A stretch of 64,000 nucleotides of DNA from assembly GCA_002722155.1 (NCBI GenBank), contig PBKS01000019.1, positions 60,687 to 124,686 on the forward strand. Direction: 5' to 3'. The position numbers and the translations under genes were made by a program. Positions 3,462-37,154 of this stretch are shown piece after piece. Source of the DNA: Chloroflexota bacterium. Its GTDB lineage: Bacteria > Chloroflexota > Dehalococcoidia > Lucifugimonadales > UBA826. The notes beneath the pieces were generated by a model that saw nothing but the letters and a program-made list of their open reading frames with translations, was not told the DNA's origin and ran no database searches. Numbering within the stretch: position 1 is the stretch's first letter; each line of letters opens with the position of its first letter.

Positions 3462-3482
3462 AGATCAGATATAACTATTAGA

Positions 3483-3508: not shown

Positions 3509-3522
3509 TAAGCACCACATAC

Positions 3523-3900: not shown

Positions 3901-3939
3901 TTAATGCGAAATTGAAATAGATGAACCAGTAAGAAATAT

Positions 3940-4513: not shown

Positions 4514-4532
4514 GCCCTTTGAAAAAAGGGGC
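4514..4532 (+). other. Hairpin in the dnaA leader
   Basis: gcccttt / aaggggc stem of 7 bp (one G-U), loop gaaaa, followed by ttt. Lies 34 nt upstream of the dnaA ATG at 4566. Confidence 0.3.
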
Positions 4533-4565
4533 TTTAACACTGTAGGCGGTTTTGTGCAAAAATTT

Positions 4566-5984: not shown

Positions 5985-6033
5985 TCTATCCACTTGAATT
6001 CAATGGCTTTTAGCATATCTCAAGGTTATACGT

Positions 6034-11785: not shown

Positions 11786-11883
11786 ATACATGTGAGATCG
11801 TGCATTTCTATCAATTTCTGCTATTCTGTAGCCCACTTTTGCAGATACAGACAAAAATTTCAAACTGGTTCGGAGTATGAAAA

Positions 11884-13281
11884 ATGGTTGTAGCTAAATC
11901 CCAAGAAGAAATCAGCTTAATGGCACATTTCATGAGACGAGCAGGTTTTGGCGCATCCAGGGAAGAAATAGAGTCAAGGTGCGAGGTTGGGTACTCAGAG
12001 ACGGTTGAAGAGTTACTTGCACCCTCAAATCAGATTCCAGTGGATATATACGAATTCATCAGATACTACCCAATGTGGTGGAAACCGGGAACAATGGGCG
12101 GTCTTGGTCAAGCTGGATGGGTGTGGACAATGATAAACACACCGGCGCCTCTGCAAGAGAAATTGTGTGTGTTCTACCACAATATTTTTGCCACTGGCGT
12201 TGCTAAAGTGGACCATTATGATGAAATTCAAGACATGATCGACATGTTTAGAGAAAAAGGACTTGGCTTCTATAAGGATATCTTGCTAGAGGTAGCCAAA
12301 AGTCCTGCCATGATTTATTGGCTTGACAACAATGAAAATCACTCCGATTCCATTAATGAAAATTGGGGCCGAGAATTGTTAGAACTATTCACCATGGGGG
12401 TTGGTAACTACACAGAGGAGGATGTTCAGGAGTGCTCTAGGGCCTTCACAGGTTGGACCCTTGAACATAAATTGCCGAGGTTTCACATGGGGAGATGGGA
12501 CTGGCATTTCAAATTTATGGAAGAAGATCATGACTATGGTGAAAAGGAATTCCTTGGACAAAAAGGCAACTTTGACGGTGAAGATATCATAGATATAATT
12601 CTTTCAAAACCTGCCACTGCCTATTTTATAGCTCGACATCTCTACAGTTTTTTTGTAGAAGATGAGCCCCAAGTACCTGCATGGTCTGTTGTACCTCCGA
12701 ACAATCCAGGGGCCGTTGAATTCTTAGCGGAAGCTCTATTAGACAGCGACTACCACATGGAAACCGTACTCAGAAAACTATTTCACAGTGATTTTTTCAA
12801 AGAATCTAGGTTCACAAGAGTCAAAAACCCAACTGAAGTCGTTATCGGAACCCTTAGATTAGTTGGTAACGGCAACTTGCCTTCTCCAGATATATTGGAT
12901 TGGACCGGCCAAATAGTCTACATGGGGCAAGACCTCATGAATCCCCCAAGTGTTGAAGGGTGGCACTCTGGAATAGAGTGGATCAACAGTGGCACGTTGA
13001 TGAAACGTACCAATTTCATGTCAGAAATGATTGGAGATTATTCTCGCCCTGGTGTAAAAAAAATAATCGATAGAGTTAGCTCGGTTTCCAGCAACCCTGA
13101 AGATGTAGTGGACTCTTGTCTAGATGTAATGGGTCCACTGACAATAACTGAAAAGACAAGAGCGGAACTTATCGAGCACGTTTCTCAACAAGGTGAATTT
13201 AACTGGCAATCCGATGGAGTTACAAGAGCATTGGAATTGCTTCAACTTATCGTGGCCACCAGAGAATTCCAATTTGCATAG
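11884..13281 (+). CDS. DUF1800-family protein
   Basis: 465 aa. HFMRRAGFGAS and PAMIYWLDN...NENWGRELLELFTMGVGNYTEEDV...AFTGWT match my recollection of DUF1800. No signal peptide seen. Confidence 0.75.
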   Translation: MVVAKSQEEISLMAHFMRRAGFGASREEIESRCEVGYSETVEELLAPSNQIPVDIYEFIRYYPMWWKPGTMGGLGQAGWVWTMINTPAPLQEKLCVFYHNIFATGVAKVDHYDEIQDMIDMFREKGLGFYKDILLEVAKSPAMIYWLDNNENHSDSINENWGRELLELFTMGVGNYTEEDVQECSRAFTGWTLEHKLPRFHMGRWDWHFKFMEEDHDYGEKEFLGQKGNFDGEDIIDIILSKPATAYFIARHLYSFFVEDEPQVPAWSVVPPNNPGAVEFLAEALLDSDYHMETVLRKLFHSDFFKESRFTRVKNPTEVVIGTLRLVGNGNLPSPDILDWTGQIVYMGQDLMNPPSVEGWHSGIEWINSGTLMKRTNFMSEMIGDYSRPGVKKIIDRVSSVSSNPEDVVDSCLDVMGPLTITEKTRAELIEHVSQQGEFNWQSDGVTRALELLQLIVATREFQFA

Positions 13282-13323
13282 ATTCCCGAAAAGGTTCAAG
13301 GTTAGGAAACAGCGAGGATATAC

Positions 13324-14472
13324 ATGAATAAGAATAGATCCAAAGATCCCGTAGTTGTGGTTGTTCAATTATCGGGAGGAAATGACTACATGAATACTGT
13401 GATCCCTCATAATAATTCTCTTTATCGAGACTACAGGCCCTCGGTAAACATAAACGAACCCGATGTTATTCAGTTAACTCCAGAAATGGGTTTCCACCCC
13501 GCCATGGCTCCATTAGCGGATATGTACCGAGAAGGGAATATTGCCGTCATTCATGGGGTTGGATATGAAAATTCACCTAGGTCTCATTTCCGATCTATGG
13601 ATATTTGGCACACCTGTGAACCAGAAACTCTCGGTACTGAAGGGTGGCTTGGGAGAGCAGTAAAACAAATCGACCCCAAGAAGGAAAATGTAGTTACAGC
13701 TGTTAGCATGGGGCCATCTCTTTTTCGAGCTTTAGTTGCCCCGGATGTTCCCGTTGCCACAGTAGAAAATTTGGACAATTACGGCCTACTTACTGATATC
13801 TCTCCTGAACAGAAGAGAGATCGTGTGTTAGATAGGTACAAAAAGATGTATTCCCCTATGATTGGATCTGGTCCTGTCATGGATTTTCTCGGCCAAACAG
13901 GACTCGATGCCATGAAAGGTGCAGATATTTTAAACGTGGCTCCAAGCATGTACTCATCAACAGTTGAATATGCCGACACTTCGATAGCAAGAAAACTAAA
14001 AGGCATAGCCCAAATACATTTGGCAAATTTGGGCACAAGAATTTTCTATTGTGACCTTGGAAGTTTCGATACCCATGCCGATCAACTTTCCACTCACAAT
14101 AAACTTTGGACTTCAGCTTCGACAGCTATAAGAGATTTTTTTGACGATTTGGAGGAACACGAGGCAGCTGACAACGTAACCATGTTCCTGTTTTCTGAGT
14201 TCGGGAGAAGAGTTTACGATAATGGTGCAGGGACGGATCATGGCGCCGCAGGCGCCTGCCTTGCGATAGGCAAAGGTGTCAGAGGGGGAGAATACGGACA
14301 GTATCCATCTATGAAAGGCGGAGATTTAGATCAAGGAGACTTGGTACCAAATATGGATTTCCGAAGTGTCTATACCACCTTGGCTGAAGACTGGATGAAA
14401 TTAGACCCGATCCCTATCGTTGGGGGACAATTCGAAAAGCCGGAATTCATGTTTCCTTCAACTAAAAATTAG
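13324..14472 (+). CDS. DUF1501-family protein (sulfatase/alkaline-phosphatase-like fold)
   Basis: 382 aa. LSGGNDYMNTVIP and SEFGRRVYDNGAGTDHGAAG motifs. No Tat or Sec signal at the N-terminus. Confidence 0.75.
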   Translation: MNKNRSKDPVVVVVQLSGGNDYMNTVIPHNNSLYRDYRPSVNINEPDVIQLTPEMGFHPAMAPLADMYREGNIAVIHGVGYENSPRSHFRSMDIWHTCEPETLGTEGWLGRAVKQIDPKKENVVTAVSMGPSLFRALVAPDVPVATVENLDNYGLLTDISPEQKRDRVLDRYKKMYSPMIGSGPVMDFLGQTGLDAMKGADILNVAPSMYSSTVEYADTSIARKLKGIAQIHLANLGTRIFYCDLGSFDTHADQLSTHNKLWTSASTAIRDFFDDLEEHEAADNVTMFLFSEFGRRVYDNGAGTDHGAAGACLAIGKGVRGGEYGQYPSMKGGDLDQGDLVPNMDFRSVYTTLAEDWMKLDPIPIVGGQFEKPEFMFPSTKN

Positions 14473-14483
14473 GTGGCGTTCGA

Positions 14484-15479
14484 ATGCTAACTACATCAGC
14501 AAAGGGCCGGGCTCTCGATTACAATCGAGTTGTTGGAGGTAGACAATTTAGGGGCATTAACTACGCTACTGCAGGTTTAAATAACGATGTTTTTATCTTG
14601 ATAAGAGAAACCTACCATTCGGACATCCTAAAAGTAAATATAGGCCCAGATATAGACGATGAAGAAGTGCTGATGTCCTTCAGCGATACATCCAAAATGG
14701 ACCTAAAACGCTCCTGGCCAAGCTGTGCCACCTTCAATGGTTTGAATCTTCTGGTTACCGATGAGCTGCAAAATAGCATACTGATATTTAGCACCGACGG
14801 CGAGTTACTGGACACCATAGGCAGTCTAGGAAAAGGAGAAACGGAATTCAATCGACCGTCCGGGATAGCCGTAGATGCAGCCAATAACATGTATGTGGCT
14901 GATACATTAAATCATCGAATTCAAAAACTTTCTCCTACAGGGTCTTTTATTGAAAGCTGGGGAAAATTTGGGGATGCTGATGGTTCTCTGAATTCTCCCT
15001 GGGGCCTCTGCATAGACAAAGATGATTTTCTCTACATTGCTGACCATAAAAATCACAGAATCCAAAAGTTCAGCCCCGATGGGAACTTTGTCATTTCATT
15101 TGGGAATATTGGAACTAGGACTGAAACATTGAACCACCCTTCAGATGTATCCGTTGACGACTCCGGAGATATTTATGTAGCTGACTGGGTCAATGACAGA
15201 ATTCAAATATATGATAGTCACGGAATATATGTAACCAGCCTAACCGGTTCAGCAGTGGCCCTGTCTAAATGGCAAGAACAGTATGTCAAAGCTAGTCCTG
15301 ATGTTTTTAAAGCACGAAGAAGAGTGCCAAGCCTGGAACCTGAAACCCTCTTTGCGCTCCCCACATGTGTTAGCTTTGACGATTCAAAATCCAGGTTGCT
15401 CGCGGTCGATTCGCAGAGATGGCGAATTCAAATTTTTAATAAAGTCAGTAATTATAGCGATCCCCAGTTCAATATTTAA
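14484..15479 (+). CDS. NHL-repeat beta-propeller protein
   Basis: 331 aa. Repeated ...YVADxxNHRIQKF... blades (NHRIQKL, NHRIQKF, NDRIQIY, WRIQIF). Starts 11 nt after the DUF1501 gene. Confidence 0.8.
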   Translation: MLTTSAKGRALDYNRVVGGRQFRGINYATAGLNNDVFILIRETYHSDILKVNIGPDIDDEEVLMSFSDTSKMDLKRSWPSCATFNGLNLLVTDELQNSILIFSTDGELLDTIGSLGKGETEFNRPSGIAVDAANNMYVADTLNHRIQKLSPTGSFIESWGKFGDADGSLNSPWGLCIDKDDFLYIADHKNHRIQKFSPDGNFVISFGNIGTRTETLNHPSDVSVDDSGDIYVADWVNDRIQIYDSHGIYVTSLTGSAVALSKWQEQYVKASPDVFKARRRVPSLEPETLFALPTCVSFDDSKSRLLAVDSQRWRIQIFNKVSNYSDPQFNI

Positions 15480-15665
15480 TTATAGAGCCCTTCGTTTGTA
15501 GGATCTGTTATCATCGTAATAGATAGTTATTATCGCGGATCATGATATTTATTTGACATTTAATGAGTTAATCTCTCGGCTATGTTCATAATATAATGTT
15601 GGCTATATGAAGTTGCGGTCATTTTGAATCGTCAACTCAAATGAATGATTGTGTGGAGGTTACCC

Positions 15666-17471
15666 ATGCGCAAGAACGGTTTGACTTATTTGTTGGTTGG
15701 TGCTATCACAGCCCTGATGCTTTCTGTAGCTGTGGGTTGTAGTTCTTCTGAAGAAGAAACCACTTCGGCTCCAGCAGCAGCTTCGGCTCCAGCAGCAGCT
15801 CCAGCTCCAGCGACAAAAGCAGCTCCGGCAGCAAAAACAACCAACGTATTTGGTCGTGAAATGCCAAGTGACGCTGCTCCAATGGCAGATCAATTTCTTA
15901 AAATTAACTATGAAAAAGAAGGTGAGGCACTAGAATTCGCTGTCAGTGTTTACAACTCTGCGGCAGGAAGCATACAGAGTGGCTTTAGCCTAGCATTATT
16001 GAGTACGGACCTATCTACCGTACCAGGTGGTGCAACAGATTGGTCGTCTTCACCAGACATGAAAACTTGGACATTTAATATCGATCCGGATCTCACGTGG
16101 AGCGATGGCGTCCCTGTCACCGCTCATGACTATGTGTATACATGGCAATACTACGCTGACCCAGATCATGCTTATGACTTTACATGGTATTTTGGAATGC
16201 TCGAAGTTGAAAACTATGGGGCTATTGAAGCTGGTGAAAAACCTTTGGATTCTCTAGGTGTCACGGCTAGTGACGATAATACCCTGGTCTTCCAGTTAGA
16301 TACCCCTGCTCCCTACGTTCCTGGTTTCATGATGTATGGTTCTCCTTTGGCAAAGCACGTGGCTGAAGAGCATGGCCCCACCTATTCAAACAAGCCTGAG
16401 ACCACAGTATCAAGCACTCCTTGGATTCTTAAAGAGTGGATCCCAAATCAGCACGCAGAATTTGAACCTAACCTTAACTACACAGGTAAGTTACTTCCTT
16501 ATATTGAAAATTTTAAGGCTGTTTACGGAGAACGTAAATTCGACGCTTATCTCGCAGGAGAACTTGACACTATCAGCGGACCCTTTACTCCCGCGGATCA
16601 AGAATTCCTGGAGAACGATGAGAAGCTCATGAGCCAGAGAGGTCTTTCACCGGGTGACTTCCGAACACACTACCTTTTCTTCGATTTCCAAAGCGAACCG
16701 TTCGATGATGTTAGAGTTAGGCAAGCTTTCGCTAAGGCTATTGATAGAGAATCAATAATCAATAACGTCGTCGGATCAGAAGGAGGGGAGCCAAGGTACG
16801 GTATCCTGATTCCTGGATTCCCAGATGCTGCAGGGCCTGACAAATTAAAGCAATACCAAGGCTTTGATGCGGCGGCAGCTCAGAAACTAATGGCTGATGC
16901 CGGATACGCAGGTGGCGAAGGATTCCCCAAGCTTGAAATGGCTTTGAGACAAGAAACCGAACTATTCCAGGCAGCAGCAGCAGCCGTTGCTCAACAGTTA
17001 AAGCAAAATATTGGTGTGGACGTAACCATCAACAATATGGACCGAAAGACTTACATGGCTGGCCTAAATGAACATGACTTGCAATTCGCAATGGTTTCAT
17101 ATGGGTTTGACTATGTAGATGCTTCCAACTTCATGGGTGTATTTAAGACTGACGGTCGCCATAACTGGAACAACAAAGAATTTGAGGATCTGAGGGTTGA
17201 AGCTGGAGCAATGGAACTTTCCGATGAAAGATCAGCGAAGATGATCAAGCTGCAGGAAATTCTTTCTGAAGATGTAGGAAGCGTGTTTTTCTGGTCTGAG
17301 ATTCAGAATCAGTTACACAAGCCTTACCTCAAAGGTGACTGGCGTGAAGAAAATCAGGCTGGGTGGGCAGGCCTTCAGTTCCCTAACTGGAACCCTGGCT
17401 TTGGGGCCCAAAACATTTATGAGGTGTATATCGGGGAAAATGTCAAAGAATATACTCGTTCGGCCTACTAA
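15666..17471 (+). CDS. ABC transporter substrate-binding lipoprotein, family 5 (peptide/nickel/opine type)
   Basis: Lipobox LSVAVGC followed by an Ala/Pro-rich tether. Family-5 SBP length and motifs (e.g. WSDGVPVTAHDYVYTW). The ATG at 15666 follows GGAGG; the ORF-track start at 15645 is less likely. Confidence 0.85.
   Translation: MRKNGLTYLLVGAITALMLSVAVGCSSSEEETTSAPAAASAPAAAPAPATKAAPAAKTTNVFGREMPSDAAPMADQFLKINYEKEGEALEFAVSVYNSAAGSIQSGFSLALLSTDLSTVPGGATDWSSSPDMKTWTFNIDPDLTWSDGVPVTAHDYVYTWQYYADPDHAYDFTWYFGMLEVENYGAIEAGEKPLDSLGVTASDDNTLVFQLDTPAPYVPGFMMYGSPLAKHVAEEHGPTYSNKPETTVSSTPWILKEWIPNQHAEFEPNLNYTGKLLPYIENFKAVYGERKFDAYLAGELDTISGPFTPADQEFLENDEKLMSQRGLSPGDFRTHYLFFDFQSEPFDDVRVRQAFAKAIDRESIINNVVGSEGGEPRYGILIPGFPDAAGPDKLKQYQGFDAAAAQKLMADAGYAGGEGFPKLEMALRQETELFQAAAAAVAQQLKQNIGVDVTINNMDRKTYMAGLNEHDLQFAMVSYGFDYVDASNFMGVFKTDGRHNWNNKEFEDLRVEAGAMELSDERSAKMIKLQEILSEDVGSVFFWSEIQNQLHKPYLKGDWREENQAGWAGLQFPNWNPGFGAQNIYEVYIGENVKEYTRSAY
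15763..15798 (+). repeat. 18-bp tandem duplication in the SBP tether region
   Basis: cttcggctccagcagcag x2 encodes the SAPAAA SAPAAA linker. Confidence 0.85.
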
Positions 17472-17522
17472 ACACATATAGGGTTTCTCTTTAAACTAGA
17501 ACCCTTGTAAAAAAAATTGAGC

Positions 17523-17564
17523 GGCCTGCTCGATACAGAACTGTATCAGGTGGGCCGTTCTTTT
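17523..17564 (+). terminator. Rho-independent terminator after the SBP gene
   Basis: Long hairpin: outer ggcctgct / aggtgggcc (with wobbles) and inner gataca / tgtatc, followed by gttctttt. Confidence 0.55.
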
Positions 17565-17583
17565 AGGGAGGGGTAAAACGGAT

Positions 17584-18735
17584 ATAAAATCAATCCGCAA
17601 ACAAATACCTGCACTCGAAAGTTGCACGTACTTCAACTGCGGTACCTTCGGACCCACACCAACGGTCGTAGCGAATGAGGCTGTAAGGTTAACCCGCCTT
17701 ATAGAAACTAAAGGACCCTACGATCGAGATGTTAACGACGAGATACTAACTTTGTTTGAAACGTCTCGGGACGGATTTGCTAACTATGTGGGGGTTTCCA
17801 CTGACGAAATAGCTCTTACTAGGAACGTATCGGATGGCATCAACATCGTTGCTTCGGGATTCGATTGGAATCCTGGTGATGAGGTGATTATTACTGACGA
17901 AGAGCACCCCAGCGGCTCCCTCCCATTTTTAAATCTATCCGAAAGGTATGGCGTCCAAGTCAAATTACTTAGATTCCAAACAAATACCAATGAAATATTA
18001 AAAGATTTAGAATCGCTGATAACCGACAAAACAAAACTGGTTTTTCTCAGCCATGTTTCAACTGTTGATGGTGCCCGATTACCCGCGAAAGCGGTTGGAG
18101 AATTCCTGAAGGCTCGAAACATACCTTTTATGCTAGATGGAGCTCATGCAATCGGCCAATTCCCTGTGTCAATAAAAGATTTAAGCTGTGATTTTTATGC
18201 CGGTTGTGGCCATAAATGGCTTTTGTGTCAGCAAGGGACAGGGTTCCTTTATGTAGCAAAGAATTGGCTAACAAGATTAAAAACAAGCTGGGTAGGTTGG
18301 GGCATGACCGATCAATATGATCTCGATTCTCTATCGTATACAAGTTTGGAAACGGCCCAGCGATTTGAATTTGGAACCCGTTATTGGGCGACGCACGCTT
18401 CAGCAGTAAAAGCTTTAGAATTTCACAACGCTATAGGTGCTGAAAATATATATGAAAGAAGCCATGACTTAGCTAGCAAGTTAAAAGCCCGGCTTTTGGA
18501 CATTCCCGGTATAACTATTAAAACACCTTTGCACAAGGCTGAAAGTACAGGTATTGTCGCCTTCTCCACTGCCGGCCTCAAGCACCCTGAACCTGGCAAT
18601 TGGCTATGGAATGAACATAGAATTTTAACTGCCCATAACCCGGACACTAAATCAATGCGTATAGCTGCGGCTTTTTATCTACTCGAAACCGAAATACATA
18701 TGCTTGCAGACAAATTATCAGAACTTGCGTCGTAG
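17584..18735 (+). CDS. Class-V aminotransferase (cysteine desulfurase / isopenicillin-N-epimerase-like); start codon unresolved
   Basis: PLP fold-type I class V features (HKWL Lys context CGHKWLLCQQGTGFLY). The conserved N-terminus DIKSIRKQIPALESCTYFNCGTFGPTP lies upstream of the first canonical start (TTG 17752). 17584 is an ATA placed 10 nt after GGGAGGGG. Confidence 0.7.
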   Translation: MKSIRKQIPALESCTYFNCGTFGPTPTVVANEAVRLTRLIETKGPYDRDVNDEILTLFETSRDGFANYVGVSTDEIALTRNVSDGINIVASGFDWNPGDEVIITDEEHPSGSLPFLNLSERYGVQVKLLRFQTNTNEILKDLESLITDKTKLVFLSHVSTVDGARLPAKAVGEFLKARNIPFMLDGAHAIGQFPVSIKDLSCDFYAGCGHKWLLCQQGTGFLYVAKNWLTRLKTSWVGWGMTDQYDLDSLSYTSLETAQRFEFGTRYWATHASAVKALEFHNAIGAENIYERSHDLASKLKARLLDIPGITIKTPLHKAESTGIVAFSTAGLKHPEPGNWLWNEHRILTAHNPDTKSMRIAAAFYLLETEIHMLADKLSELAS

Positions 18736-18759
18736 CATGAATGAAGAGAAAATCTCGGC

Positions 18760-19692
18760 ATGATTAGATATTCTCTAGGACGATTGCTCGGACTTCTGGG
18801 ATCTATTTTAATTATTTCCTTGATTCTTTTTGTAGCCGTCCGATGGTTACCCGGTACCCCTTGGAACGAAGCAGAAATCCCACTGCAAGGGGCCGCCAAA
18901 GAAAATATGATGAGAAAATATGGGCTAGATCAACCCATTCATGTTCAGTACGCTAAATATGTATGGAATCTTCTTCATCTAGATTTGGGTAATTCCTTCA
19001 TATACAGGACAGATACGGTTTGGGAAACGATCGCTCGCGGGTGGCCAGCAACAGCGAAGATTGGAGCTTTCACTCTCTTAATAGCTTTTTCTATGGGCAT
19101 TCCAGTGGGTATAATCGCAGCGCTTCGTCAAAATAGTCTACTCGACTATACAGTCACCTTTTTAGCCACAACGGGAATCACAGTCCCAAACTTTGCAGTG
19201 GCAGTCTGGTTGGTCATGTTTGTCTCAGTAAAAATGGACCTTCTCCCTACTCAAGGCTGGGGAACATGGCAGCATTTAGTTCTACCTGTGATAGCTTATT
19301 CTCTAGCCCCTACCAGCCTCATAGCGCGTTTTACAAGAGTCAGTATGTTAGAGGCTATGAGATCCGATTATATTCGCACCGCACGAGCTAAAGGATTAGC
19401 TGAACCGGTAGTAATACTACGTCATGTATTTAAAAATGCCCTAATCCCCATTATCACACTGGTAGGTCCTCTAATTCCAAACCTTATGACAGGTAGTATT
19501 TTTATAGAAAATACTTTTGGTATACCAGGGATTGGTCGACATTTTGTAACCAGTATTTTTGACAGAGATTACCCCGTGATAATGGGGGTGTTCATGTTAG
19601 TAGCCGTTCTCTTTGGCTTAACCTACTTTATAAGCGACATACTCTATACATGGGCCGACCCAAGAGTCAGATTAACGGATCGTAGACAATGA
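18760..19692 (+). CDS. ABC transporter permease (DppB/OppB-like)
   Basis: 310 aa, about 6 TMS. The N-terminal IRYSLGRLL and the EAA-loop region SDYIRTARAKGL are typical of the family. Confidence 0.88.
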   Translation: MIRYSLGRLLGLLGSILIISLILFVAVRWLPGTPWNEAEIPLQGAAKENMMRKYGLDQPIHVQYAKYVWNLLHLDLGNSFIYRTDTVWETIARGWPATAKIGAFTLLIAFSMGIPVGIIAALRQNSLLDYTVTFLATTGITVPNFAVAVWLVMFVSVKMDLLPTQGWGTWQHLVLPVIAYSLAPTSLIARFTRVSMLEAMRSDYIRTARAKGLAEPVVILRHVFKNALIPIITLVGPLIPNLMTGSIFIENTFGIPGIGRHFVTSIFDRDYPVIMGVFMLVAVLFGLTYFISDILYTWADPRVRLTDRRQ

Positions 19693-20564
19693 ACAGTCTT
19701 AACCAAATCGAAGAGAAGGGACAAAAGAGGCGGAAGGCTAATTTTATATGGCGTTTCCAACGTAATAAACTCGCGGTCATTGGCTTATGTATTGTTGTAG
19801 TCTGCTTTTTCATCGCAGCCTTTGCCAACTTTTTAGCTCCAACTTCATACGACGTCGGGAATTTAGTGGAGGCAAGGCAACCCCCCAGTTGGGGGCATGT
19901 GTTTGGTACTGATGGGGTTGGCCGAGATTATCTTAGTCGAATAATTTACGCGACTAGGACTTCCATAATGGTTGCTTTAGGCGTACAGGTTATAACCCTA
20001 ACCATAGGTATAAGCCTCGGCACTCTTGGTGGATATTTGGGTGGTTGGGTAGATCAAATAGTAGTAAGAATAATAGAAATCGCGACTGGAATTCCTGCTT
20101 TACTAATAGCCATGTTTATTATGGGATTACTCGGACATTCAATGTGGAACGTAATATTTGCTCTTGGCATTTCCGGTTGGGTGGTGGAAACACGTATTAC
20201 ACGTGGGCAATTTTTAGCATTCAAGGAAAGAGAGTTCGTCGTCGCAGCCCAGGCGATCGGAGCGAGTCAATTCAGAGTCGCATTTAGACACATATTCCCG
20301 AACATCATACCCATACTAGCGGTATTGCTCGCCTTCCAGGTACCTGCTGTGATCTTTAATGAGGCAGGACTTAGCTTTTTAGGACTCGGAATTGATGAAC
20401 CTGTTCCGAGTTTAGGAAAAATGATATCTACCAGTCTTGCTTATGTTCGAACCTACTGGCATATGGGTCTATTTCCCAGCTTGATGATAGCAATTATCAC
20501 CATGGGGTTTACATTTGTTGGCGATGGTTTGCGAGATGCTCTGGATCCTACCATGAACAGATAA
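19689..20564 (+). CDS. ABC transporter permease (DppC/OppC-like)
   Basis: 291 aa. ATGA overlap with the upstream permease. EAA-loop region EFVVAAQAIGAS. Confidence 0.88.
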   Translation: MNSLNQIEEKGQKRRKANFIWRFQRNKLAVIGLCIVVVCFFIAAFANFLAPTSYDVGNLVEARQPPSWGHVFGTDGVGRDYLSRIIYATRTSIMVALGVQVITLTIGISLGTLGGYLGGWVDQIVVRIIEIATGIPALLIAMFIMGLLGHSMWNVIFALGISGWVVETRITRGQFLAFKEREFVVAAQAIGASQFRVAFRHIFPNIIPILAVLLAFQVPAVIFNEAGLSFLGLGIDEPVPSLGKMISTSLAYVRTYWHMGLFPSLMIAIITMGFTFVGDGLRDALDPTMNR

Positions 20565-23863: not shown

Positions 23864-24118
23864 ATTCTGACCGAACACCAAGGAAGAGAATCACAGCGCT
23901 TAAAAGTTCGTGCTCTTTCGTGCTCTATTGTTTGGACCTAGGACAACACGAATGTTGAATTTCTGATTCTTCCAACGTATTCTCTTCTTCATTTTCAGAC
24001 TTTTCTTTTTTTTCCTGCGACATCCTTCCAATAAATTCGAATGCATCTGTGGGTTGTGTGGAGAATTCCTTCTCTTCTTTTGACATGGCCTGGAAAAACG
24101 CCCCTAACCGTTTGGGTA

Positions 24119-24193
24119 TGGAGCCGACGGTCAGGTTCGAACTGACGACCTGCTGTTTACAAAACAGCTGCTCTACCACTGAGCTACGTCGGC
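24119..24193 (-). tRNA. tRNA-Thr (anticodon UGU), CCA encoded
   Basis: Manual cloverleaf: acceptor gccgacg/cgtcggc, D arm gctc-agtggta-gagc, anticodon arm gctgt-TTTGTAA-acagc, T arm gtcag-ttcgaac-ctgac, discriminator U plus CCA. Confidence 0.9.
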
Positions 24194-24251
24194 ATGATGG
24201 TTTGCTATTAAAAGTCTAACTCAATAGCGACTATTTTGCTAAGAGAATCCC

Positions 24252-24282
24252 AATAAATAGTATTGATTGAATACTATTTATT
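24252..24282 (-). terminator. AT-rich perfect hairpin between obg and tRNA-Thr
   Basis: aataaatagtat / atactatttatt, a 12-bp perfect inverted repeat with a 7-nt loop and T-rich flanks. Lies downstream of the obg stop. Confidence 0.45.
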
Positions 24283-24388
24283 TTCTATTTCCTTAAATAA
24301 TCTATTTCATGTGGATTACATTACTAATATATCTTAATGGGAAGTCAAACCAAGCCTCCAGGGTTAGATGCGGTCTTAAAAAGAATGA

Positions 24389-25660
24389 CTAATCCCATTC
24401 CCACTCTACATTGCCAATCCGAACGGTATCACCTTCTGATATGCCCGCTTCCTCTAAAGCCTTTACCACCCCTGTCTTTTGCATATGTTTATAGAACTGC
24501 ATCCTTGCAAGCCAGTCTTCATAATCTATTCTCTGGGCAATTCTTTCCACTCCGGGTGCTTGTACTATGAACACTCCATTTTCATGTGAAATAGAAACAC
24601 CTCTGCGCTTCGGTTCTGGCCGCAATATGGCGATATTTTCTTCTGTTGCTTCAAAAGAAAGTTTGGATGGAATGGTGTTCGGCAATTCGGATAAGACCTG
24701 CACAACTTCATCCATCATAGGCCCAATACCCTCTCCTGACACTGCCGAAACTATATGGAACCGCCAACCAGATTGACCCATAGCATCTCTTATGTCTTCA
24801 GCTAAAATCCTAACTTCATCTAAATCGACTTTATTAATAGCCAGAATTTGTGGTTTCCCAATTAGTGCTTCATTAAACATTTCCAACTCTCTATTGATCT
24901 TCCGGAAATCTCCGCTGGGATCTTCTGACGTGCCGTCCACAAGGTGTATAAGAACCTTAGTCCTTTCAATATGCCGAAGAAATTCATGTCCAAGGCCAAC
25001 TCCTTTATGGGCGCCCTCTATTAAACCAGGAATATCTACCATGACAAAATCTTTATCTCGATGTTCCACAATTCCTAAAACAGGATCAATCGTTGTAAAT
25101 GGGTAGTTAGCGATCTTAGGACGAGCCGCAGTTAGAAAAGTTATTAGACTAGATTTACCCGCGTTTGGAACACCAATTATTCCTACGTCAGCTATTAACT
25201 TCAATTCTAACCTGAGAGACTTTTTGAGGCCTTCTTCTCCGGCTTGTGCTATTACAGGATATTGACTAGTTGAAGACGAATATTTGACATTTCCATAGCC
25301 CCCTCTTCCTCCGGGTGCACCAATATATTCCTCTCCAGTGCTTAATATATCAGCTATCACACGACCATCTTCATTTAATATTTGTGTACCTACAGGAACC
25401 CTAATAACTACATCATCTCCATTTTTTCCATGCTTCTTTGCCTTGGCACCATTTTCACCATTACCGGCCGCAAAATTCTTTTCATACCTAAAGTTAATCA
25501 ACGTGTTTTCATTGTGATCTCCGACGATCACCACATTTCCACCTCTACCTCCGTCACCTCCATCAGGCCCTCCCCGCGGAACGAACTTTTCATGACGGCC
25601 GCTGATGGCCCCGTCCCCACCTGAGCCACTTGTTATTTGAATTAGTACACTATCTATCAT
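24389..25660 (-). CDS. obg: GTPase Obg/CgtA
   Basis: 423 aa. Gly-rich Obg fold (GGDGGRGGNVV), G1 GVPNAGKSS, G3 DIPGLIEGA, G4 NKVD, and a C-terminal OCT-like domain. Confidence 0.95.
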   Translation of the reverse strand: MIDSVLIQITSGSGGDGAISGRHEKFVPRGGPDGGDGGRGGNVVIVGDHNENTLINFRYEKNFAAGNGENGAKAKKHGKNGDDVVIRVPVGTQILNEDGRVIADILSTGEEYIGAPGGRGGYGNVKYSSSTSQYPVIAQAGEEGLKKSLRLELKLIADVGIIGVPNAGKSSLITFLTAARPKIANYPFTTIDPVLGIVEHRDKDFVMVDIPGLIEGAHKGVGLGHEFLRHIERTKVLIHLVDGTSEDPSGDFRKINRELEMFNEALIGKPQILAINKVDLDEVRILAEDIRDAMGQSGWRFHIVSAVSGEGIGPMMDEVVQVLSELPNTIPSKLSFEATEENIAILRPEPKRRGVSISHENGVFIVQAPGVERIAQRIDYEDWLARMQFYKHMQKTGVVKALEEAGISEGDTVRIGNVEWEWD

Positions 25661-25678
25661 TTATCGATTCCCAATAGG

Positions 25679-25839
25679 TGTAGATAACAATCATATTAAT
25701 AAAACTGTTTGATTTGTGGAAATTTCCTCACATCAGGAGGTGGATATGACTAAATTTTATCATGATAATTAGTGGGAGCCTTGTTGATAATATTGAAAAT
25801 ATTGGGATAGACATTTGTATATGGAAACAATGTGGATAA
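25679..25839 (+). promoter_or_regulatory. Cluster of five same-orientation DnaA-box-like 9-mers
   Basis: TGTAGATAA 25679 (1 mismatch), TGTGGAAAT 25715 (2), GGTGGATAT 25739 (2), TGTTGATAA 25782 (1), TGTGGATAA 25831 (0), all scored against TGTGGATAA. Lies in the AT-rich 313-bp intergenic region. Confidence 0.5.
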
Positions 25840-25906
25840 TAAGGGTCACTTGTCACCAACATCCCCTCTTGATATTAACTAAATAGCTTTATAATTACCC
25901 TGACTG

Positions 25907-25923
25907 TCCACACTATGTGTGGA
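25907..25923. promoter_or_regulatory. Perfect palindrome tccacac-tat-gtgtgga upstream of the lyase gene
   Basis: 7-bp arms with a 3-bp spacer. Each arm contains the TCCACA DnaA-box core. Lies 51 nt upstream of the ATG at 25974. Confidence 0.4.
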
Positions 25924-25973
25924 AGATTTTATAGACCGGTAGTCTTGGAAAATTGAGGAGATAAAGGGAAGAG

Positions 25974-27320
25974 ATGGCACCTTATATTAAAAACAAAACG
26001 GAAATCAGTGAAATGTTCAATGAAACGAACATTTTTCAGTCATATTTGGATGTAGAAGCAGCATTGGCCCGAGCCCAAGCGAAACAAGAAATTATCCCAA
26101 CCATGGCAGCGGAGATAATATCTGAAAAAGCAAAACTAGAACTTTTGAACACAGAAAGGATCTATGAGGGATTGGATAAAACAGGGCACCCTTTGGTCCC
26201 GTTGATTTGGGAACTGGATAGAGTTTGCGGCGAAGAAGCAGGCGGATATATACATTGGGGAGCTACAACGCAGAACATTACCCAGACCGGAAAACTCCTG
26301 TTAATTAGAAAATGCCATAACATTTTTCTAAAGGATCTAGGAAATTTACTTCACATCCTTGGAAATTTGGCAGCAGAGACCAAAGATTATGCTATGCCGG
26401 GTAGAACGCATGGTCAGCATGCAGTTCCGGCAACTTTCGGATACAAGGTTGCAGTGTGGATAGATGAATTAATGCGACATGTTGACCGTTTGAAAGATAG
26501 CGAGGACCGTGTTTTTGTAGCCATGCTGGGGGGTGGAGCAGGAACTATGGCATCTGTAGGCATGGAAGGTCTTGAAACCCAACGATTGATAGGTGAAGAA
26601 CTTGGATTTGGTTCGATGTCAATGCCTTCCAGAGTGATTGGAGATCATCTTACAGAGTACATTATGATTCTAGCTATGTTAGCAGCTACGGCGAGCAAAA
26701 TGTCTAGAGAAATTTATACCATGATGAAACAGGAATTTGGTGAAGTAGAGGAACCCATCCCTATCGGCGCGGTTGGGTCATCAACGATGCCTCAGAAAAG
26801 GAATCCTCATTTATGTCAAGATGTTGTTGCTTGGGCAGCGGAGGTGAGAACATTTGTACCTATGTCTTTGGAAGCTATGCAAACTGAGCATGAGGCAGAT
26901 AAAACCACTAGCATCATGATAAATTCTGCCATTGACAGAACATGTATTTTGGTTGCCCAGATAACCAACGGTCTAATCGAAGTATTCTCTGACTTGAAAG
27001 TATTTCCGGAAAGGATGAGACAAAATCTAGATCTTAGTGGAGGGCTGATACTTTCCGAAAGAATCATGTTGGAATTAGGGCAGAAAATGGGCCGGCAAAA
27101 AGCCCATGATGCGGTCTATGAAGCGGCCCAAAGATCCGTTAATGAAAAAAGACCATTTACTGAAACTCTGCAAGAGGAACCAGAAGTTGCTAAACATTTA
27201 ACTAAAGAAGAAATATTAGGATTATTAGACCCTGAACAATATACAGGGCTATCTGCATATTTTGCGGAAGAATTTGCGATAAAGGCAGAACAAAAAAGCA
27301 AGGAACTTCTTGGCCGCTAA
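25974..27320 (+). CDS. Fumarate-lyase superfamily enzyme (adenylosuccinate lyase / 3-carboxymuconate cycloisomerase-like)
   Basis: 448 aa. Signature GSSTMPQKRNP and the TQNITQTG and GRTHGQHA motifs. Confidence 0.85.
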   Translation: MAPYIKNKTEISEMFNETNIFQSYLDVEAALARAQAKQEIIPTMAAEIISEKAKLELLNTERIYEGLDKTGHPLVPLIWELDRVCGEEAGGYIHWGATTQNITQTGKLLLIRKCHNIFLKDLGNLLHILGNLAAETKDYAMPGRTHGQHAVPATFGYKVAVWIDELMRHVDRLKDSEDRVFVAMLGGGAGTMASVGMEGLETQRLIGEELGFGSMSMPSRVIGDHLTEYIMILAMLAATASKMSREIYTMMKQEFGEVEEPIPIGAVGSSTMPQKRNPHLCQDVVAWAAEVRTFVPMSLEAMQTEHEADKTTSIMINSAIDRTCILVAQITNGLIEVFSDLKVFPERMRQNLDLSGGLILSERIMLELGQKMGRQKAHDAVYEAAQRSVNEKRPFTETLQEEPEVAKHLTKEEILGLLDPEQYTGLSAYFAEEFAIKAEQKSKELLGR

Positions 27321-30407: not shown

Positions 30408-31424
30408 TTGAAGAGCACATCAATATATGACACATTTAATCGGCCCCTACGAGATCTCAGAATCTCTGTAACAGATCGTTGTAATTTCCGGTGCCCATAC
30501 TGTATGCCTGCTGAGATTTTTGGTGACCGATATGAATTTCTTCCTAGAGCAGATTTACTGACTTTTGAAGAGATAAGCCGCATAGTAAAGATTGCCGTTC
30601 AATTAGGAGTAACGAAAGTTAGAATCACCGGCGGTGAACCGTTGGTGCGTCAAAATATAGAAGAACTGGTGCAAATGATTGCTGAAGTAGAAGGGATTGA
30701 AGATTTAGCTATGACCACCAATGCCTACCTGTTATCGGGGTATGCGCAGAAATTAAAAAAAGCAGGGTTGCACCGAATAACGGTAAGTTTAGATTCCTTA
30801 GACGATACTGTTTTCCAGAAAATGAATGGAAGAGGATTCAGTACTGCTCGAGTTTTGGATGGAATAAAAGAAGCGAAAGAAGCAGGGTTACAGCCAATTA
30901 AAATCAATGCTGTTGTGCAGAAAGGGGTTAATGATCATACTGTCATCGAATTAGCAGAGTGGTGTAAGAATAATGGACATATACCCCGGTTTATCGAATA
31001 TATGGACGTTGGCACGTTAAATGATTGGAAGCTCCAAGAAGTTGTTCCTGCGAATGAAATTGTTGACTTAATTGGACAGCGTTTCCCAGCTGACCCCATA
31101 GTACCTACTTATCAAGGGGAAGTCGCTCAAAGATATCGTTATAGGGACGGGCAAGGTGAATTTGGTGTTATCTCTTCTGTATCTCAACCATTCTGCGGAG
31201 ATTGCTCACGGATGAGACTTTCTCCTGAAGGAAAGGCTGTCACTTGTCTTTTTGCGGAGTCGGGTACTGATTTGAGGGAATGGCTAAGAAATGGGGCAAC
31301 AGATGATCAAATTAAACAAACCATTGTTGGTATATGGGGAACCAGAGAGGATCGATATTCTGAAGAACGATCTGAAGAGACGGTAAAAAGAAAGAAAGTT
31401 GAGATGTACCATATTGGCGGCTAA
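30408..31424 (+). CDS. moaA: GTP 3',8-cyclase MoaA (radical SAM)
   Basis: 338 aa. LRISVTDRCNFRCPYCMP radical-SAM cluster and a C-terminal CGDCSRMRLSPEG second cluster. Confidence 0.92.
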   Translation: MKSTSIYDTFNRPLRDLRISVTDRCNFRCPYCMPAEIFGDRYEFLPRADLLTFEEISRIVKIAVQLGVTKVRITGGEPLVRQNIEELVQMIAEVEGIEDLAMTTNAYLLSGYAQKLKKAGLHRITVSLDSLDDTVFQKMNGRGFSTARVLDGIKEAKEAGLQPIKINAVVQKGVNDHTVIELAEWCKNNGHIPRFIEYMDVGTLNDWKLQEVVPANEIVDLIGQRFPADPIVPTYQGEVAQRYRYRDGQGEFGVISSVSQPFCGDCSRMRLSPEGKAVTCLFAESGTDLREWLRNGATDDQIKQTIVGIWGTREDRYSEERSEETVKRKKVEMYHIGG

Positions 31425-31839
31425 TAAATACTCAGAGAAAGCTCCTATCGTCATATATACGGATGGTGCGTGTCTCGGGAATCCAGGCCCTGGCGGTTGG
31501 GGAGCAGTCGTTTTTGTAAACGAAAAAAAAACCATGCTCCATGGTTCACAAGAGAATACCACCAATAACAGAATGGAAATTATGGCTGTAATAGAGGCGT
31601 TAAGATTTATTCCCACAGATGCTGATGTGAAAATCTTTTCTGATTCCACGTACGTTATTAACACCATGACGAAGAATTGGAAAAGAAAAAAGAATCAAGA
31701 CTTGTGGATCATGTTGGATAATGAGGTTGCCGGTAGGAATATTGAATGGCAATGGGTAAAAGGTCATTCTGGAGATCTTTTTAATGAAGAAGCTGACAAA
31801 TTAGCATATGAAGAAGCTCAGAAGGTGTCTAAAAAATGA
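31399..31839 (+). CDS. rnhA: Ribonuclease HI
   Basis: IYTDGACLGNPGPGGWG, TNNRMEIMAVIEAL, SDSTYVIN and WVKGHSG..NEEADKLA motifs. The start is TTG 31399 or TTG 31414; both overlap the moaA 3' end. Confidence 0.9.
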   Translation: MRCTILAANKYSEKAPIVIYTDGACLGNPGPGGWGAVVFVNEKKTMLHGSQENTTNNRMEIMAVIEALRFIPTDADVKIFSDSTYVINTMTKNWKRKKNQDLWIMLDNEVAGRNIEWQWVKGHSGDLFNEEADKLAYEEAQKVSKK

Positions 31840-31871
31840 CAGCAAACTATTTCACAAAAAAGGAATAAAAA

Positions 31872-32378
31872 GTGTCTAAAGCCAAAAAATTAACCCATGT
31901 TAATGAAACCGGCACTGCTAATATGGTGGATGTAGGATCAAAACAAATCACTAAAAGAATTGCGGAAGCTAGAGCCGAAGTGTTCATGCAGGAAGAGACC
32001 ATGGCTTTAATTCGAGATAATTCTTTTGAGAAAGGAGACGTAATTGCTACGGCTCGTATTGCGGGTATCATGGCGGTTAAAGAGACGTCCAGCTTGATAC
32101 CATTGTGCCATCCTCTACCAATTAGCCAGGTAAAATTAGATTTTCAGTTAGATGAGAATAATAGGAATGTTAAGATTGCAGCCACAGTCAAAACCAATGC
32201 TAAAACTGGGGTTGAGATGGAAGCATTAACGGGAGTATCGATAGCAGCTCTCACAATCTACGATATGTGCAAAGCTGTTGATAGAAGTATGCATTTCCAC
32301 GTATGGCTTGCCTCCAAATCCGGTGGTCAGTCAGGCGATTTTGTCTTTGATCCACCTTCCGCACGTCAAGGCAGTTAA
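31872..32378 (+). CDS. moaC: Cyclic pyranopterin monophosphate synthase MoaC
   Basis: 168 aa, GTG start. LTHVNETGTANMVDV, IPLCHPL and TGVEMEALT motifs. Confidence 0.92.
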   Translation: MSKAKKLTHVNETGTANMVDVGSKQITKRIAEARAEVFMQEETMALIRDNSFEKGDVIATARIAGIMAVKETSSLIPLCHPLPISQVKLDFQLDENNRNVKIAATVKTNAKTGVEMEALTGVSIAALTIYDMCKAVDRSMHFHVWLASKSGGQSGDFVFDPPSARQGS

Positions 32379-32393: not shown

Positions 32394-33656
32394 ATGGCTA
32401 GCGCTGCGGCACGGTATCACGGTTTAGACGCCCTGAGGGGAATAGCCATGGTTTTGGGAATAGTGTTGCATGCATCTCTTCCGTACATACCAGGTATTCC
32501 CCCCTCCATTTGGCCTACCGACAATAGCTCTTCCTACCCGGTAAAAATCGTTTTTGAATTTATCCACATGTGGCGGATGCCACTATTTTTCATGTTGGCG
32601 GGGTTTTTTGGTCATTTGGTAATTGCTCGTAGATCTTGGAGGTATTGGTGGAAGAACAGATTTTTAAGAATTGCCTTGCCCATTGTGGTGTTTTTTCCTG
32701 TTATGGGTATGACTCTGCCCTGGATTTGGAAATATGGACATACTGGGGATTTTCATTTTTTTTACTCCAATATGGGACAACCTTTTCACCTGTGGTTCTT
32801 ATGGCAGTTACTGATATTTATGCTACTTTCGATTGCACTTTCTCTCCCTTATAAAGGTTTCAGGTTCCTAATGCTGCAACTGAATGGTCGAGAGCCGGGA
32901 ATTCTGTCTTCAATGTTCCGGAAACTTGCGAATCTTGGACCCATAATTATTTTCAGAGCTAGAATACCAATTGGATTCATTGTGGTTTGCGGGGTTGCCA
33001 ATTTCTGGTCTGGGGGAGAATTAATGATAAATCCTTTGGGAAGTGGGATGTATTTTCTTTTTGGATTCAGCTTGTACAAGAATCCACCCCTTTTTTCTTT
33101 TTTGAAAAAGAGATGGGCATACTATCTTCTGGTTGCTTTTTTGGTTTTTTCTGTCTACGTCATTCTAGACATGAATGGGGTAGAGGATATAACTCAGGTT
33201 ATTTATCAAACTGAAATGGAAAGAAATGCAACAAAACATCTTGGTCTTCTCACTCTAACTATGTATGGTTTGGACATTATCGGGGCGGTGTTGTTTTCAA
33301 TGGGGTTTATAGGCTTGGCAGAAGCCAAATTTGGTTCATACAATGTTTTTTCCCGGTTTCTTTCTGATGGGTCTTATTGGATGTATCTTATCCATTTACC
33401 CATCGTTGCCTTGACCACCTTCTTTCTTTTCGGCTTGCCATTATTGCCAGAAATCAAATTCATCTTGGCTATAGGAGTCACGGGTGGATTCTGTCTATTA
33501 ACCTACTATTATTTTGTGCGCGCTACTTTTATAGGGGTATTTTTGAATGGCCGCCGGCACAGAGGTTTAAATCTTAAAAATGTGTGTTCGATGTGTGGCG
33601 AAATCTTTGAAAATCCTGGGGCGTTTTGTACAGAATGTGGTGGCGAATTAAATTAA
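32394..33656 (+). CDS. Acyltransferase-3 family membrane protein with C-terminal zinc-ribbon
   Basis: 420 aa. YHGLDALRGIAMVLGIVLH start motif, about 10 TMS. The C-terminus is CSMCGEIFENPGAFCTECGGEL (CxxC-x11-CxxC). Confidence 0.8.
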   Translation: MASAAARYHGLDALRGIAMVLGIVLHASLPYIPGIPPSIWPTDNSSSYPVKIVFEFIHMWRMPLFFMLAGFFGHLVIARRSWRYWWKNRFLRIALPIVVFFPVMGMTLPWIWKYGHTGDFHFFYSNMGQPFHLWFLWQLLIFMLLSIALSLPYKGFRFLMLQLNGREPGILSSMFRKLANLGPIIIFRARIPIGFIVVCGVANFWSGGELMINPLGSGMYFLFGFSLYKNPPLFSFLKKRWAYYLLVAFLVFSVYVILDMNGVEDITQVIYQTEMERNATKHLGLLTLTMYGLDIIGAVLFSMGFIGLAEAKFGSYNVFSRFLSDGSYWMYLIHLPIVALTTFFLFGLPLLPEIKFILAIGVTGGFCLLTYYYFVRATFIGVFLNGRRHRGLNLKNVCSMCGEIFENPGAFCTECGGELN

Positions 33657-36602: not shown

Positions 36603-37154
36603 TTGGCTTGGATAGAAGAAGATTCTAGATACTCAGACGTTGCCAACGTTATTAAATGTATGTCACTTAATGAAGAGGCCATGCATGCTGTTTGGGATAT
36701 GGGGAATAAAATTACCTTTGGTTCTTCTTCATTGACTAGAGCTCAAGAAGAAATAATAGCGACAGTTGTATCCTCCATAAATCATTGCAAGTATTGAACT
36801 GTTTCTCATGGAGAGTATCTTCGTCAAGCTACAGAAGATCCTGAAATGGCGTCGATTATCATGCAGGATTATGGTAATGCAACTCTTGATCCCGAAACCT
36901 TGGCTATCGTTGAGTACGTTGAAAAATTGACTGTACGGCCATCTGAAATAACTGAAGAGGACATTCAAACACTTAGAAAGGTAGGATTGTCAGACCATCA
37001 GGTTCTATCTGTCGTAATGATTACAGCTATGTTCGCCTTCATGAACAGACTCGCTGACGGACTAGGGGTCCAAATAGAAGATTCCAAGGGTGACTTTGTC
37101 AATTCTTGGTTTCAAACAAACGGGCCGATAGGATCTTGGTTGAACGTATCCTAG
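36603..37154 (+). CDS. AhpD-like / carboxymuconolactone-decarboxylase-family peroxidase-related protein with in-frame TGA (candidate selenocysteine) at 36795..36797
   Basis: ORFs 36603..36797 and 36846..37154 share one frame. Read through, the 183-codon product has the family layout (MAWIE..., ...FMNRLADGLGV). The TGA replaces the second Cys of the C-x-Y-C-x3-H motif (INHCKY-TGA-TVSH). TTG start after AGGGAAGGG. Confidence 0.75.
36817..36839 (+). promoter_or_regulatory. Candidate bacterial SECIS hairpin
   Basis: aucuuc / gaagau 6-bp stem (plus a possible inner gu/ac pair) starting 19 nt after the UGA. Confidence 0.4.

Follow-up and report, generated by a model that had tools for sequence, protein, structure and literature searches.

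Where does chromosome replication begin in a bacterium whose dnaA gene lies about 21 kb from a conspicuous group of DnaA boxes? The question is raised by a 64,000-nt stretch of DNA (hereafter the window; contig PBKS01000019.1 of assembly GCA_002722155.1) from a member of the SAR202 cluster (Chloroflexota), a clade that is abundant in the dark ocean, largely uncultured and represented mostly by fragmented metagenome-assembled genomes (MAGs). An initial annotation of the window described DnaA-box-like 9-mers in the spacer between obg and a divergent gene of the fumarate lyase superfamily, and offered three readings: an origin (or part of a bipartite origin) displaced from dnaA, a DnaA-titrating or regulatory site, or a means by which DnaA controls obg or the lyase gene. 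Here we present evidence, all of it computational, that the spacer (25661-25973) is very probably the DnaA-dependent chromosomal origin (oriC) of this SAR202 bacterium. The displaced origin is the reading that gained support, and DnaA control of the flanking genes is probably a side effect of it and not a rival. A literature search for a SAR202 replication origin, or for an oriC adjacent to obg, found nothing relevant.

The obg-lyase locus and the sequences compared

The spacer and its flanking genes are as follows.

24389-25660, minus strand: obg, encoding a GTPase (Pfam GTP1_OBG, MMR_HSR1 and DUF1967)
25658-25660: start codon of obg (CAT), inside an AT-rich flank
25661-25973: spacer between the divergent genes, 313 bp, 66% AT
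25974-27320, plus strand: gene of the fumarate lyase superfamily (Pfam Lyase_1 and ADSL_C)

Both genes are transcribed outward from the spacer, obg co-directionally with a leftward fork and the lyase gene co-directionally with a rightward fork from the proposed origin. A scan of species-representative genomes yielded eight close MAG species (Obg 79-87% identical), which are labelled SAR202 cluster, Dehalococcoidia or Chloroflexota, and seven of which have both flanks. A protein search supplied a deeper tier of SAR202-like Obg sequences (62-67% identity), from which contigs were taken for the lineages L018 and L022 (both 47% GC) and L020 (33% GC); matches to the Obg protein were found on TARA Oceans and JGI marine contigs. 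The seven close species and these three make up the ten other SAR202 lineages compared here (Obg 63-87% identical, GC 33-47%), and the divergent lyase-obg pair is retained in all ten. The sequence covered comprises 64 kb of the bacterium's own genome and 10-21 kb per relative, and statements on skew and on the uniqueness of the box cluster are local to these stretches. Two alignments were used, a close alignment of the spacer from eight species (mean identity 76%) and a deep alignment of nine sequences.

A strand-composition switch with the polarity of an origin

Raw GC skew has an apparent minimum near 10 kb that is confounded by gene strand, and it was replaced by the GC skew at third codon positions (GC3 skew), calculated per gene and expressed on the plus strand. 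By this measure all 21 genes to the left of the spacer (36-25660) have values of zero or below, and 30 of the 34 genes to its right (25974-63893) have positive values. The pooled GC3 skew is -0.141 for plus-strand and -0.118 for minus-strand genes in the left arm, and +0.169 and +0.130, respectively, in the right arm. The sign is alike for both gene strands, indicating that the signal follows the replichore, and thus replication, rather than transcription. In a binomial scan over gene boundaries, the maximum-likelihood change point is the boundary between obg and the lyase gene; it exceeds a model of no change by 71.3 log-likelihood units and the next-best boundary by 7.3. Rightward of the spacer the plus strand becomes G- and T-rich; because leading strands are G-rich, a plus-strand switch from negative to positive has the polarity of an origin. 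The initial annotation had left open whether such a switch would map here or at dnaA. Within the window and the loci of the relatives it maps to the spacer and not to dnaA, so that the box cluster coincides, in the local sequence, with a switch of origin polarity.

The same flip is found at the orthologous spacer in all seven close species with both flanks. In L018 the genes on one side are all negative (9/9) and those on the other all positive (7/7), and L022 flips too. The AT-rich L020 shows a noisier flip, at or next to the spacer, with a value of -0.07 for obg itself. By GC3 skew, obg and the lyase gene fall on opposite replichores in the window; the same is true of nine of the ten relatives, all but L020.

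The switch could alternatively mark a replication terminus or a rearrangement breakpoint at which the boxes are incidental. The local extent of the sequence would allow this, as would the orientation of the left-arm genes, most of which (14/21) are head-on to a fork leaving the spacer. We nevertheless regard it as extremely unlikely, since the polarity is of the origin type, the flanking genes diverge from the spacer, 16 of 21 genes in L020 are directed away from it, and dnaA as well as a module of DnaA boxes and DnaA-trios (described below) is present. In addition, a block of head-on genes in the left arm (10184-20564) is absent from L020 and looks inserted. Conservation of the switch with two-sided synteny at 63% Obg identity further shows that it is not a recent breakpoint.

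DnaA boxes and their conservation

The box positions of the spacer, in plus-strand order from obg and with mismatches to the box consensus, are listed below.

25679, plus strand: TGTAGATAA, listed as a box in the initial annotation
25706-25714, plus strand: trio-proximal box position, TGTTTGATT, 6 mismatches (degenerate in the window species)
25715-25723, plus strand: box A, TGTGGAAAT, 2 mismatches, 12 bp from the last trio
25739-25747, plus strand: box B, GGTGGATAT, 2 mismatches
25771-25779, plus strand: box C position, AGTGGGAGC, degenerate in the window species
25782-25790, plus strand: box D, TGTTGATAA, 1 mismatch
25802-25810, plus strand: box E position, TTGGGATAG, 3 mismatches
25831-25839, plus strand: box F, a perfect TGTGGATAA, the best conserved box
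25904-25912, minus strand: box G, inverted (CTGTCCACA on the plus strand), 2 mismatches, left arm of a palindrome
25918-25926, plus strand: box H, TGTGGAAGA, 2 mismatches, right arm of the palindrome

All motif coordinates given initially were correct on re-checking. The motif at 25679 is poorly conserved as a box and belongs mostly to a conserved NAN array, whose opening triplet coincides with its final three bases. In both alignments the conservation of the spacer has the form of a footprint, falling in islands at the box positions and the triplet array; outside the named islands, three of 148 spacer positions are invariant in the deep alignment. Box F has seven of nine invariant columns in the close and six in the deep alignment, and the inverted box G has five of nine in the deep alignment, with T.CACA invariant in all nine of its sequences. 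Box A keeps its GTGGA core in seven of the eight close species, box B has six of nine columns invariant in the close alignment, and box D is retained as TGTTGA in five of the eight close species and is TGTGGATAA in L018 and L022; each of these three boxes has three of nine invariant columns in the deep alignment. For box H the corresponding figures are five of nine in the close clade and one of nine in the deep alignment. Position C reads TGTGGAAGA in L009-L011, and position E reads TGTGGATA or TGTGAATAT in relatives. At the orthologue of the trio-proximal position, L018 and L022 have CGTGGATAT (2 mismatches; deep alignment and L018 sequence), and the TGT of this position (25706-25708) is invariant across the eight species of the close alignment.

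The number of boxes is likewise maintained. In each of the seven close species the spacer contains 6-7 boxes of two mismatches or fewer, compared with about one expected from the species' own flanks, and in L009-L011 all boxes with at most one mismatch in the 20-kb locus fall within the spacer. The deeper spacers contain 12 (L018, 0.85 expected), nine (L022, 0.99 expected) and four (L020, 0.99 expected) boxes with at most two mismatches. The initial annotation had named lack of conservation in related genomes as a ground for abandoning its proposal; the boxes are retained down to 63% Obg identity, with 4-12 in the ten lineages.

Box counts within the window are less telling. The 64 kb contain 20 boxes with at most one mismatch compared with 20.8 expected, and hence no global enrichment. 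Three measures (boxes with at most one mismatch, boxes with at most two, and the GTGGA core) all rank the spacer as the densest site of the window, and its three boxes with at most one mismatch are the window maximum, with about 0.1 expected per 313 bp. A three-hit cluster arose somewhere in 64 kb in 16/300 Markov simulations (p ~0.05), the seven hits with at most two mismatches were matched in 34/300 (p ~0.11), and the five GTGGA cores in 28/200 (p ~0.14). The earlier expectation of 0.07 per 313 bp was about right, but, as it took no account of how many places were searched, it overstated the significance. The significance of the spacer comes from conservation and strand composition, not from box counts in the window: the cluster stands above its local background as the window maximum, is marginal when taken by itself, and is replicated in ten lineages. 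No other box cluster was found within the window. A perfect box at 32560-32568, described initially as a lone chance control, does exist, in reverse orientation, but it is not alone, as a second perfect box had been missed. The latter (TGTGGATAA, 49315-49323) lies at the 3' end of an open reading frame (ORF; 47811-49346) with no Pfam match; it is isolated and fits chance.

Two further boxes with at most one mismatch lie downstream of obg, at 24057 and 24310. They have no counterpart in the relatives, in which no conserved boxes were found in the neighbouring intergenic region (23864-24388) either. A tRNA-Thr(UGU) gene (24119-24193, minus strand), the sole RNA gene found in the window, lies directly downstream of obg. 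In L006-L010, L012 and L013, obg is directly followed by two small minus-strand genes (186-188 aa and 172 aa), which are missing from the window species; the 3' flank of obg is thus variable, and the 5' spacer conserved. A bipartite origin flanking obg, an option in the initial annotation, was rejected, since the two boxes and the tRNA-Thr region are unconserved and the gene content there varies.

A DnaA-trio-like array and a putative unwinding zone

The basal unwinding system (BUS) of B. subtilis is defined by a DnaA box, a short spacer and DnaA-trios (PMC8287927, PMC6669920). The published search rule calls for a box with at most two mismatches, a spacer of 0-16 bp and at least three NAN triplets, and a single box is also accepted (PMC8287927). 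Two elements at the obg end of the spacer are relevant here.

25640-25684: AT-rich flank over the start codon and ribosome-binding region of obg, the putative zone of spreading unwinding
25685-25702, plus strand: DnaA-trio-like array of six in-frame NAN triplets, TAA CAA TCA TAT TAA TAA, the third broken in the window species

In plus-strand order from obg, the array is followed after 3 nt by the trio-proximal box position and then by box A. Box A has four contiguous NAN triplets ending 9 bp upstream, in agreement with the search rule, and the gap is 12 bp when only the conserved TAA-type trios to 25702 are counted. No second tandem box with at most four mismatches is present between box A and the trios in the window species, where TGTTTGATT has six. 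The middle adenine of the trios is conserved, being invariant at five of the six triplets across the eight species of the close alignment and present at all six in six of these species. In the deep alignment eight of the 18 array columns are invariant, and A46, A49, A58 and A61 are invariant across all nine sequences. L018 has a cleaner version in the same register, (TAA TAA TAA GAA TAA TAA)-TCC-CGTGGATAT-TGTTGATTA, with six or seven triplets depending on the frame.

At a length of 45 nt, the window region is least stable at 25681-25725, and in every locus the 30- and 45-mers of lowest stability (at or above the 99.5th percentile) fall within the spacer. For the adjacent AT-rich unwinding element that the initial annotation suggested looking for, the picture is mixed: a conserved trio-like array lies at the end predicted by the box orientation, but this trio- and obg-proximal end is the least stable 45-mer in only six of ten lineages, and the exact position varies among lineages. 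By analogy with the arrangement of the duplex-unwinding element (DUE) and R1 in E. coli, the box polarity would place the zone of spreading unwinding at 25640-25684.

dnaA and its distance from the spacer

4485/4566-5984, plus strand: dnaA (Pfam Bac_DnaA, Bac_DnaA_C and DnaA_N), canonical full length

The dnaA gene lies about 21 kb from the spacer and is transcribed toward it, head-on to a fork from the proposed origin. The best structural match of its product is B. subtilis DnaA (8BTG, E 8e-106), and its domain IV motif GGRDHSTVMH aligns with GGRDHTTVIH, so that a cognate DnaA with a canonical box-reading domain IV is encoded near the boxes. The gene is an orphan without dnaN downstream, and the next gene encodes a His_Phos_1 phosphatase (window 4485-6687). 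An origin upstream of dnaA was considered and rejected. As had been reported initially, no box with at most one mismatch lies in this 1.1-kb region (3462-4565), which contains one box with at most two mismatches compared with about four expected, and the skew is negative on both sides.

L020 has its dnaA about 7-8 kb away from the spacer, again on the obg side and with unchanged relative orientation. This interval encodes an aminotransferase, a cytidylyltransferase, a phosphoribosyltransferase, an MFS transporter and two His_Phos_1 proteins, and the same set is found in the window. In L018 and L022 no dnaA was found within 10 kb of the spacer. Between the same flanking genes, the window carries about 11 kb of extra plus-strand genes (10184-20564) that are absent in L020 and head-on to replication, encoding a GMC oxidoreductase, DUF1800 and DUF1501 proteins, an NHL protein, a peptide ABC transporter (SBP_bac_5 and OppB/C-like) and a class V aminotransferase. 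This block is probably a lineage-specific insertion that moved dnaA away from the origin. Since the distance between dnaA and the spacer differs among lineages (about 7-8 kb in L020, 21 kb in the window, more than 10 kb in L018), the origin appears to have stayed with the obg-lyase pair and dnaA to have drifted away.

Several repeats occur around the upstream region of dnaA. Two copies of a segment of about 68 nt are found 457-459 bp from each other (3439-3506 and 3898-3963); both follow a stop codon, one after znuA and the other after a 61-aa ORF (3715-3900) that has a strong ribosome-binding site and no Pfam match. The second copy contains a CTCCGCTGGGCAG motif for which an inverted partner was seen by eye near 4056-4075; the repeat tool did not list this partner. 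A perfect tandem 21-mer is located at 3522-3563, and a 19-nt inverted repeat (3723-3741 and 4533-4551, 89% complementary, 791 nt apart) has one arm inside the 61-aa ORF and the other directly before the dnaA ATG. His_Phos_1 paralogues are encoded three times in the window (6034-6687, 6701-7339 and 58068-58673), two of them tail to tail beside dnaA, as in L020.

Putative promoters and the palindrome

Three further elements of the spacer bear on the expression of the flanking genes.

25754-25762, minus strand: extended -10-like element reading toward obg, TGATAAAAT, proposed from its conservation
25869-25895, plus strand: promoter-like block for the lyase gene, TTGATA-15 nt-TATAAT, putative function
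25907-25923: palindrome TCCACAC-TAT-GTGTGGA

The ATTTTATCAyG block toward obg has nine of 12 invariant columns in the close and seven of 12 in the deep alignment, and the L018 equivalent of TGATAAAAT is TGCTAATAT. Its position suggests that obg transcription starts near 25747, inside box B. The block 25866-25897 is the least stable 30-mer in the window and was considered as an unwinding element; this was rejected, since it lies on the wrong side for the box polarity and none of its 32 columns is conserved in the deep alignment (19/32 in the close clade), which places it outside the conserved origin core. We reinterpret it as a putative clade-specific lyase promoter. A simple sigma-70 scan gave three hits compared with a shuffled expectation of 2.2 and did not list the 25754-25762 element, so the promoter assignments are drawn from conservation only.

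These positions bear on a second alternative, namely that the spacer is a non-origin cluster of DnaA boxes, serving as a divergent operator for obg and the lyase gene or as a titration or reactivation site (of the datA/DARS or B. subtilis type), with the true origin within a gene or two or elsewhere. Boxes do lie at or past both putative transcription starts, box B overlapping that of obg at about 25747 and boxes G and H lying just downstream of the lyase TATAAT. There is also a precedent in B. subtilis, where stable DnaA complexes form in eight intergenic regions, most of them non-origin and some regulating adjacent genes (PMC2533591). We consider this alternative unlikely. The strand-composition switch lies at the exact spacer in the window, where the likelihood ratio against the adjacent boundaries is ~e^7, and it does so in nine of the ten relatives as well, whereas a datA, DARS or similar cluster would be expected away from the origin and its switch. 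The 64 kb hold no second box cluster to which the origin might be assigned, and the neighbouring region 23864-24388 is without conserved boxes. The trio array and the polarity of the boxes are consistent with an unwinding module, something a mere operator could do without. Finally, an origin and control of its neighbouring genes do not exclude each other, as E. coli mioC illustrates.

The palindrome invites a third alternative, in which it folds as a hairpin in the RNA of the lyase leader, as an attenuator or terminator, and the remaining motifs are due to chance. A terminator scan matches it, with a stem of 7 bp, a loop of 3 nt and then AGATTTTATA, and the T-run after it is conserved in the close clade. 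The arms, however, are invariant in sequence while the loop varies, without covariation (close alignment), and the stem is not kept across relatives: L018 and L022 retain only the reverse box and lack the partner arm, and the box order is reversed in L020. A search of the spacer for known RNA families (Rfam) gave no match, even at E <= 1. Chance, moreover, cannot account for at least seven conserved box positions or for the skew flip, and we judge the hairpin explanation very unlikely.

Initiation at the proposed origin

Given an origin in the spacer, initiation could proceed as follows. DnaA would first bind the better boxes, i.e. F (25831), A (25715), B (25739), D (25782) and the inverted G (25904). 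The weaker same-orientation boxes would be filled next, producing a head-to-tail DnaA oligomer directed toward obg, which would extend from the tandem box position (25706-25723) onto the trios (25685-25702) as single-stranded DNA. The AT-rich stretch around the obg start would then melt, the helicase would be loaded there, and forks would depart both ways, co-directional with both flanking genes. In this scheme we infer DnaA binding, and the site and direction of unwinding, from the arrangement of the motifs. The flanking promoters may be repressed by DnaA or may help origin opening.

A tentative extension, to which we give only a modest chance, is that the origin is interleaved with obg expression: the obg mRNA, driven by the extended -10-like element, would start in the box array and cross box A, the trios and the unwinding zone. 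If so, initiation and the expression of obg, an essential gene whose product is a ribosome assembly and stringent response factor, would be mechanically coupled, with obg transcription helping to open the origin or DnaA loading silencing obg. The linkage of obg and origin would then have been kept through the SAR202 radiation while dnaA drifted.

A number of observations weigh against assigning the origin to the spacer. The genes of the left arm are mostly head-on to replication, and the box statistic within the window is marginal (p ~0.05-0.14). The trio-proximal box is degenerate in the window species, with its six mismatches. A run of NAN trios beside a box has a base rate of 22% in the window, so that only the 3-nt-periodic conservation of the array counts as evidence; for the same reason, the BUS pattern search was discarded as a stand-alone test. 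The position of least duplex stability differs between lineages, and past the trios the AT-rich DNA extends only a short way before it enters, unusually, the obg start codon.

Implications and other features of the window

The mechanism proposed is not new, since origins away from dnaA are familiar (e.g. in E. coli) and the unwinding module is widespread. The locus adds a Chloroflexota example of the conserved layout of DnaA boxes and DnaA-trios, as the proposal of an ancestral module predicts. For SAR202 genomes, an oriC between obg and the lyase gene would be a landmark for orientation and closure, and adjacency to dnaA would be a poor origin indicator. To our knowledge, obg is not a usual origin indicator gene. 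An oriC defined by sequence would also support coverage-based (peak-to-trough) estimates of growth rate in metagenomes and permit replichore-aware analyses of gene order.

Elsewhere in the window, RNase H and MoaC are encoded by separate adjacent genes (31399-32378); in L018 (1687-2631) and L020 (2306-3175) they are called as one fused product (PF00075 and PF01967). ORFs without a Pfam family at E <= 0.001 are found at 36846-37154 (102 aa), 46479-47030 (183 aa) and 47811-49346 (511 aa), the last being the ORF that contains the isolated perfect box.

Comparison with known systems

The closest parallel to the obg end of the spacer is the BUS in incC of B. subtilis oriC, which consists of DnaA-box#6 and #7, trios and an AT-rich element (PMC6669920, PMC8287927). 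Both have a tandem box position beside a run of NAN triplets with a spacer of 3-4 nt, a conserved middle adenine, a fixed orientation of the proximal box relative to the trios, and further boxes located distally. The TAA-like array of SAR202 (3'-AAT-5') fits the degenerate 3'-GAT-5' motif. In contrast to the B. subtilis origin, the SAR202 site lies away from dnaA and dnaN, is monopartite and measures only 313 bp; its proximal box is degenerate in the window species, and its AT-rich region beyond the trios overlaps the obg start.

E. coli oriC, located between mnmG (gidA) and mioC about 42 kb from dnaA, is likewise an origin apart from dnaA. In the annotated E. coli oriC, which we checked, R1 (TGTGGATAA) has the 13-mers and TAT-TAG-GAT to its 5' side on the same strand, and R4 is inverted at the far end. 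The predicted unwinding side of the SAR202 spacer is also 5' on the TGTGGATAA strand, and the inverted box G at its far end resembles R4. In both, flanking promoters (putative ones in SAR202) have DnaA boxes that can couple transcription to initiation. Unlike E. coli oriC, the SAR202 spacer is without GATC (SeqA) sites or 13-mer repeats, its boxes point mostly in one direction, both of its flanking genes are transcribed outward, and IHF and Fis sites were not identified in it.

E. coli datA, DARS1 and DARS2 and the DnaA-box clusters (DBCs) of B. subtilis (PMC2533591) resemble the spacer as dense intergenic clusters far from dnaA that may control neighbouring genes. These sites lie off the composition switch and are without a trio or unwinding module, whereas the SAR202 site has both.

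Within the phylum, the predicted origins (Ori-Finder or DoriC type) of other Chloroflexota, e.g. that of Dehalococcoides next to dnaA, share the same box consensus and a clear GC skew. The SAR202 origin proposed here differs from them in that it stays beside the obg-lyase pair, with dnaA at a distance that varies from lineage to lineage.

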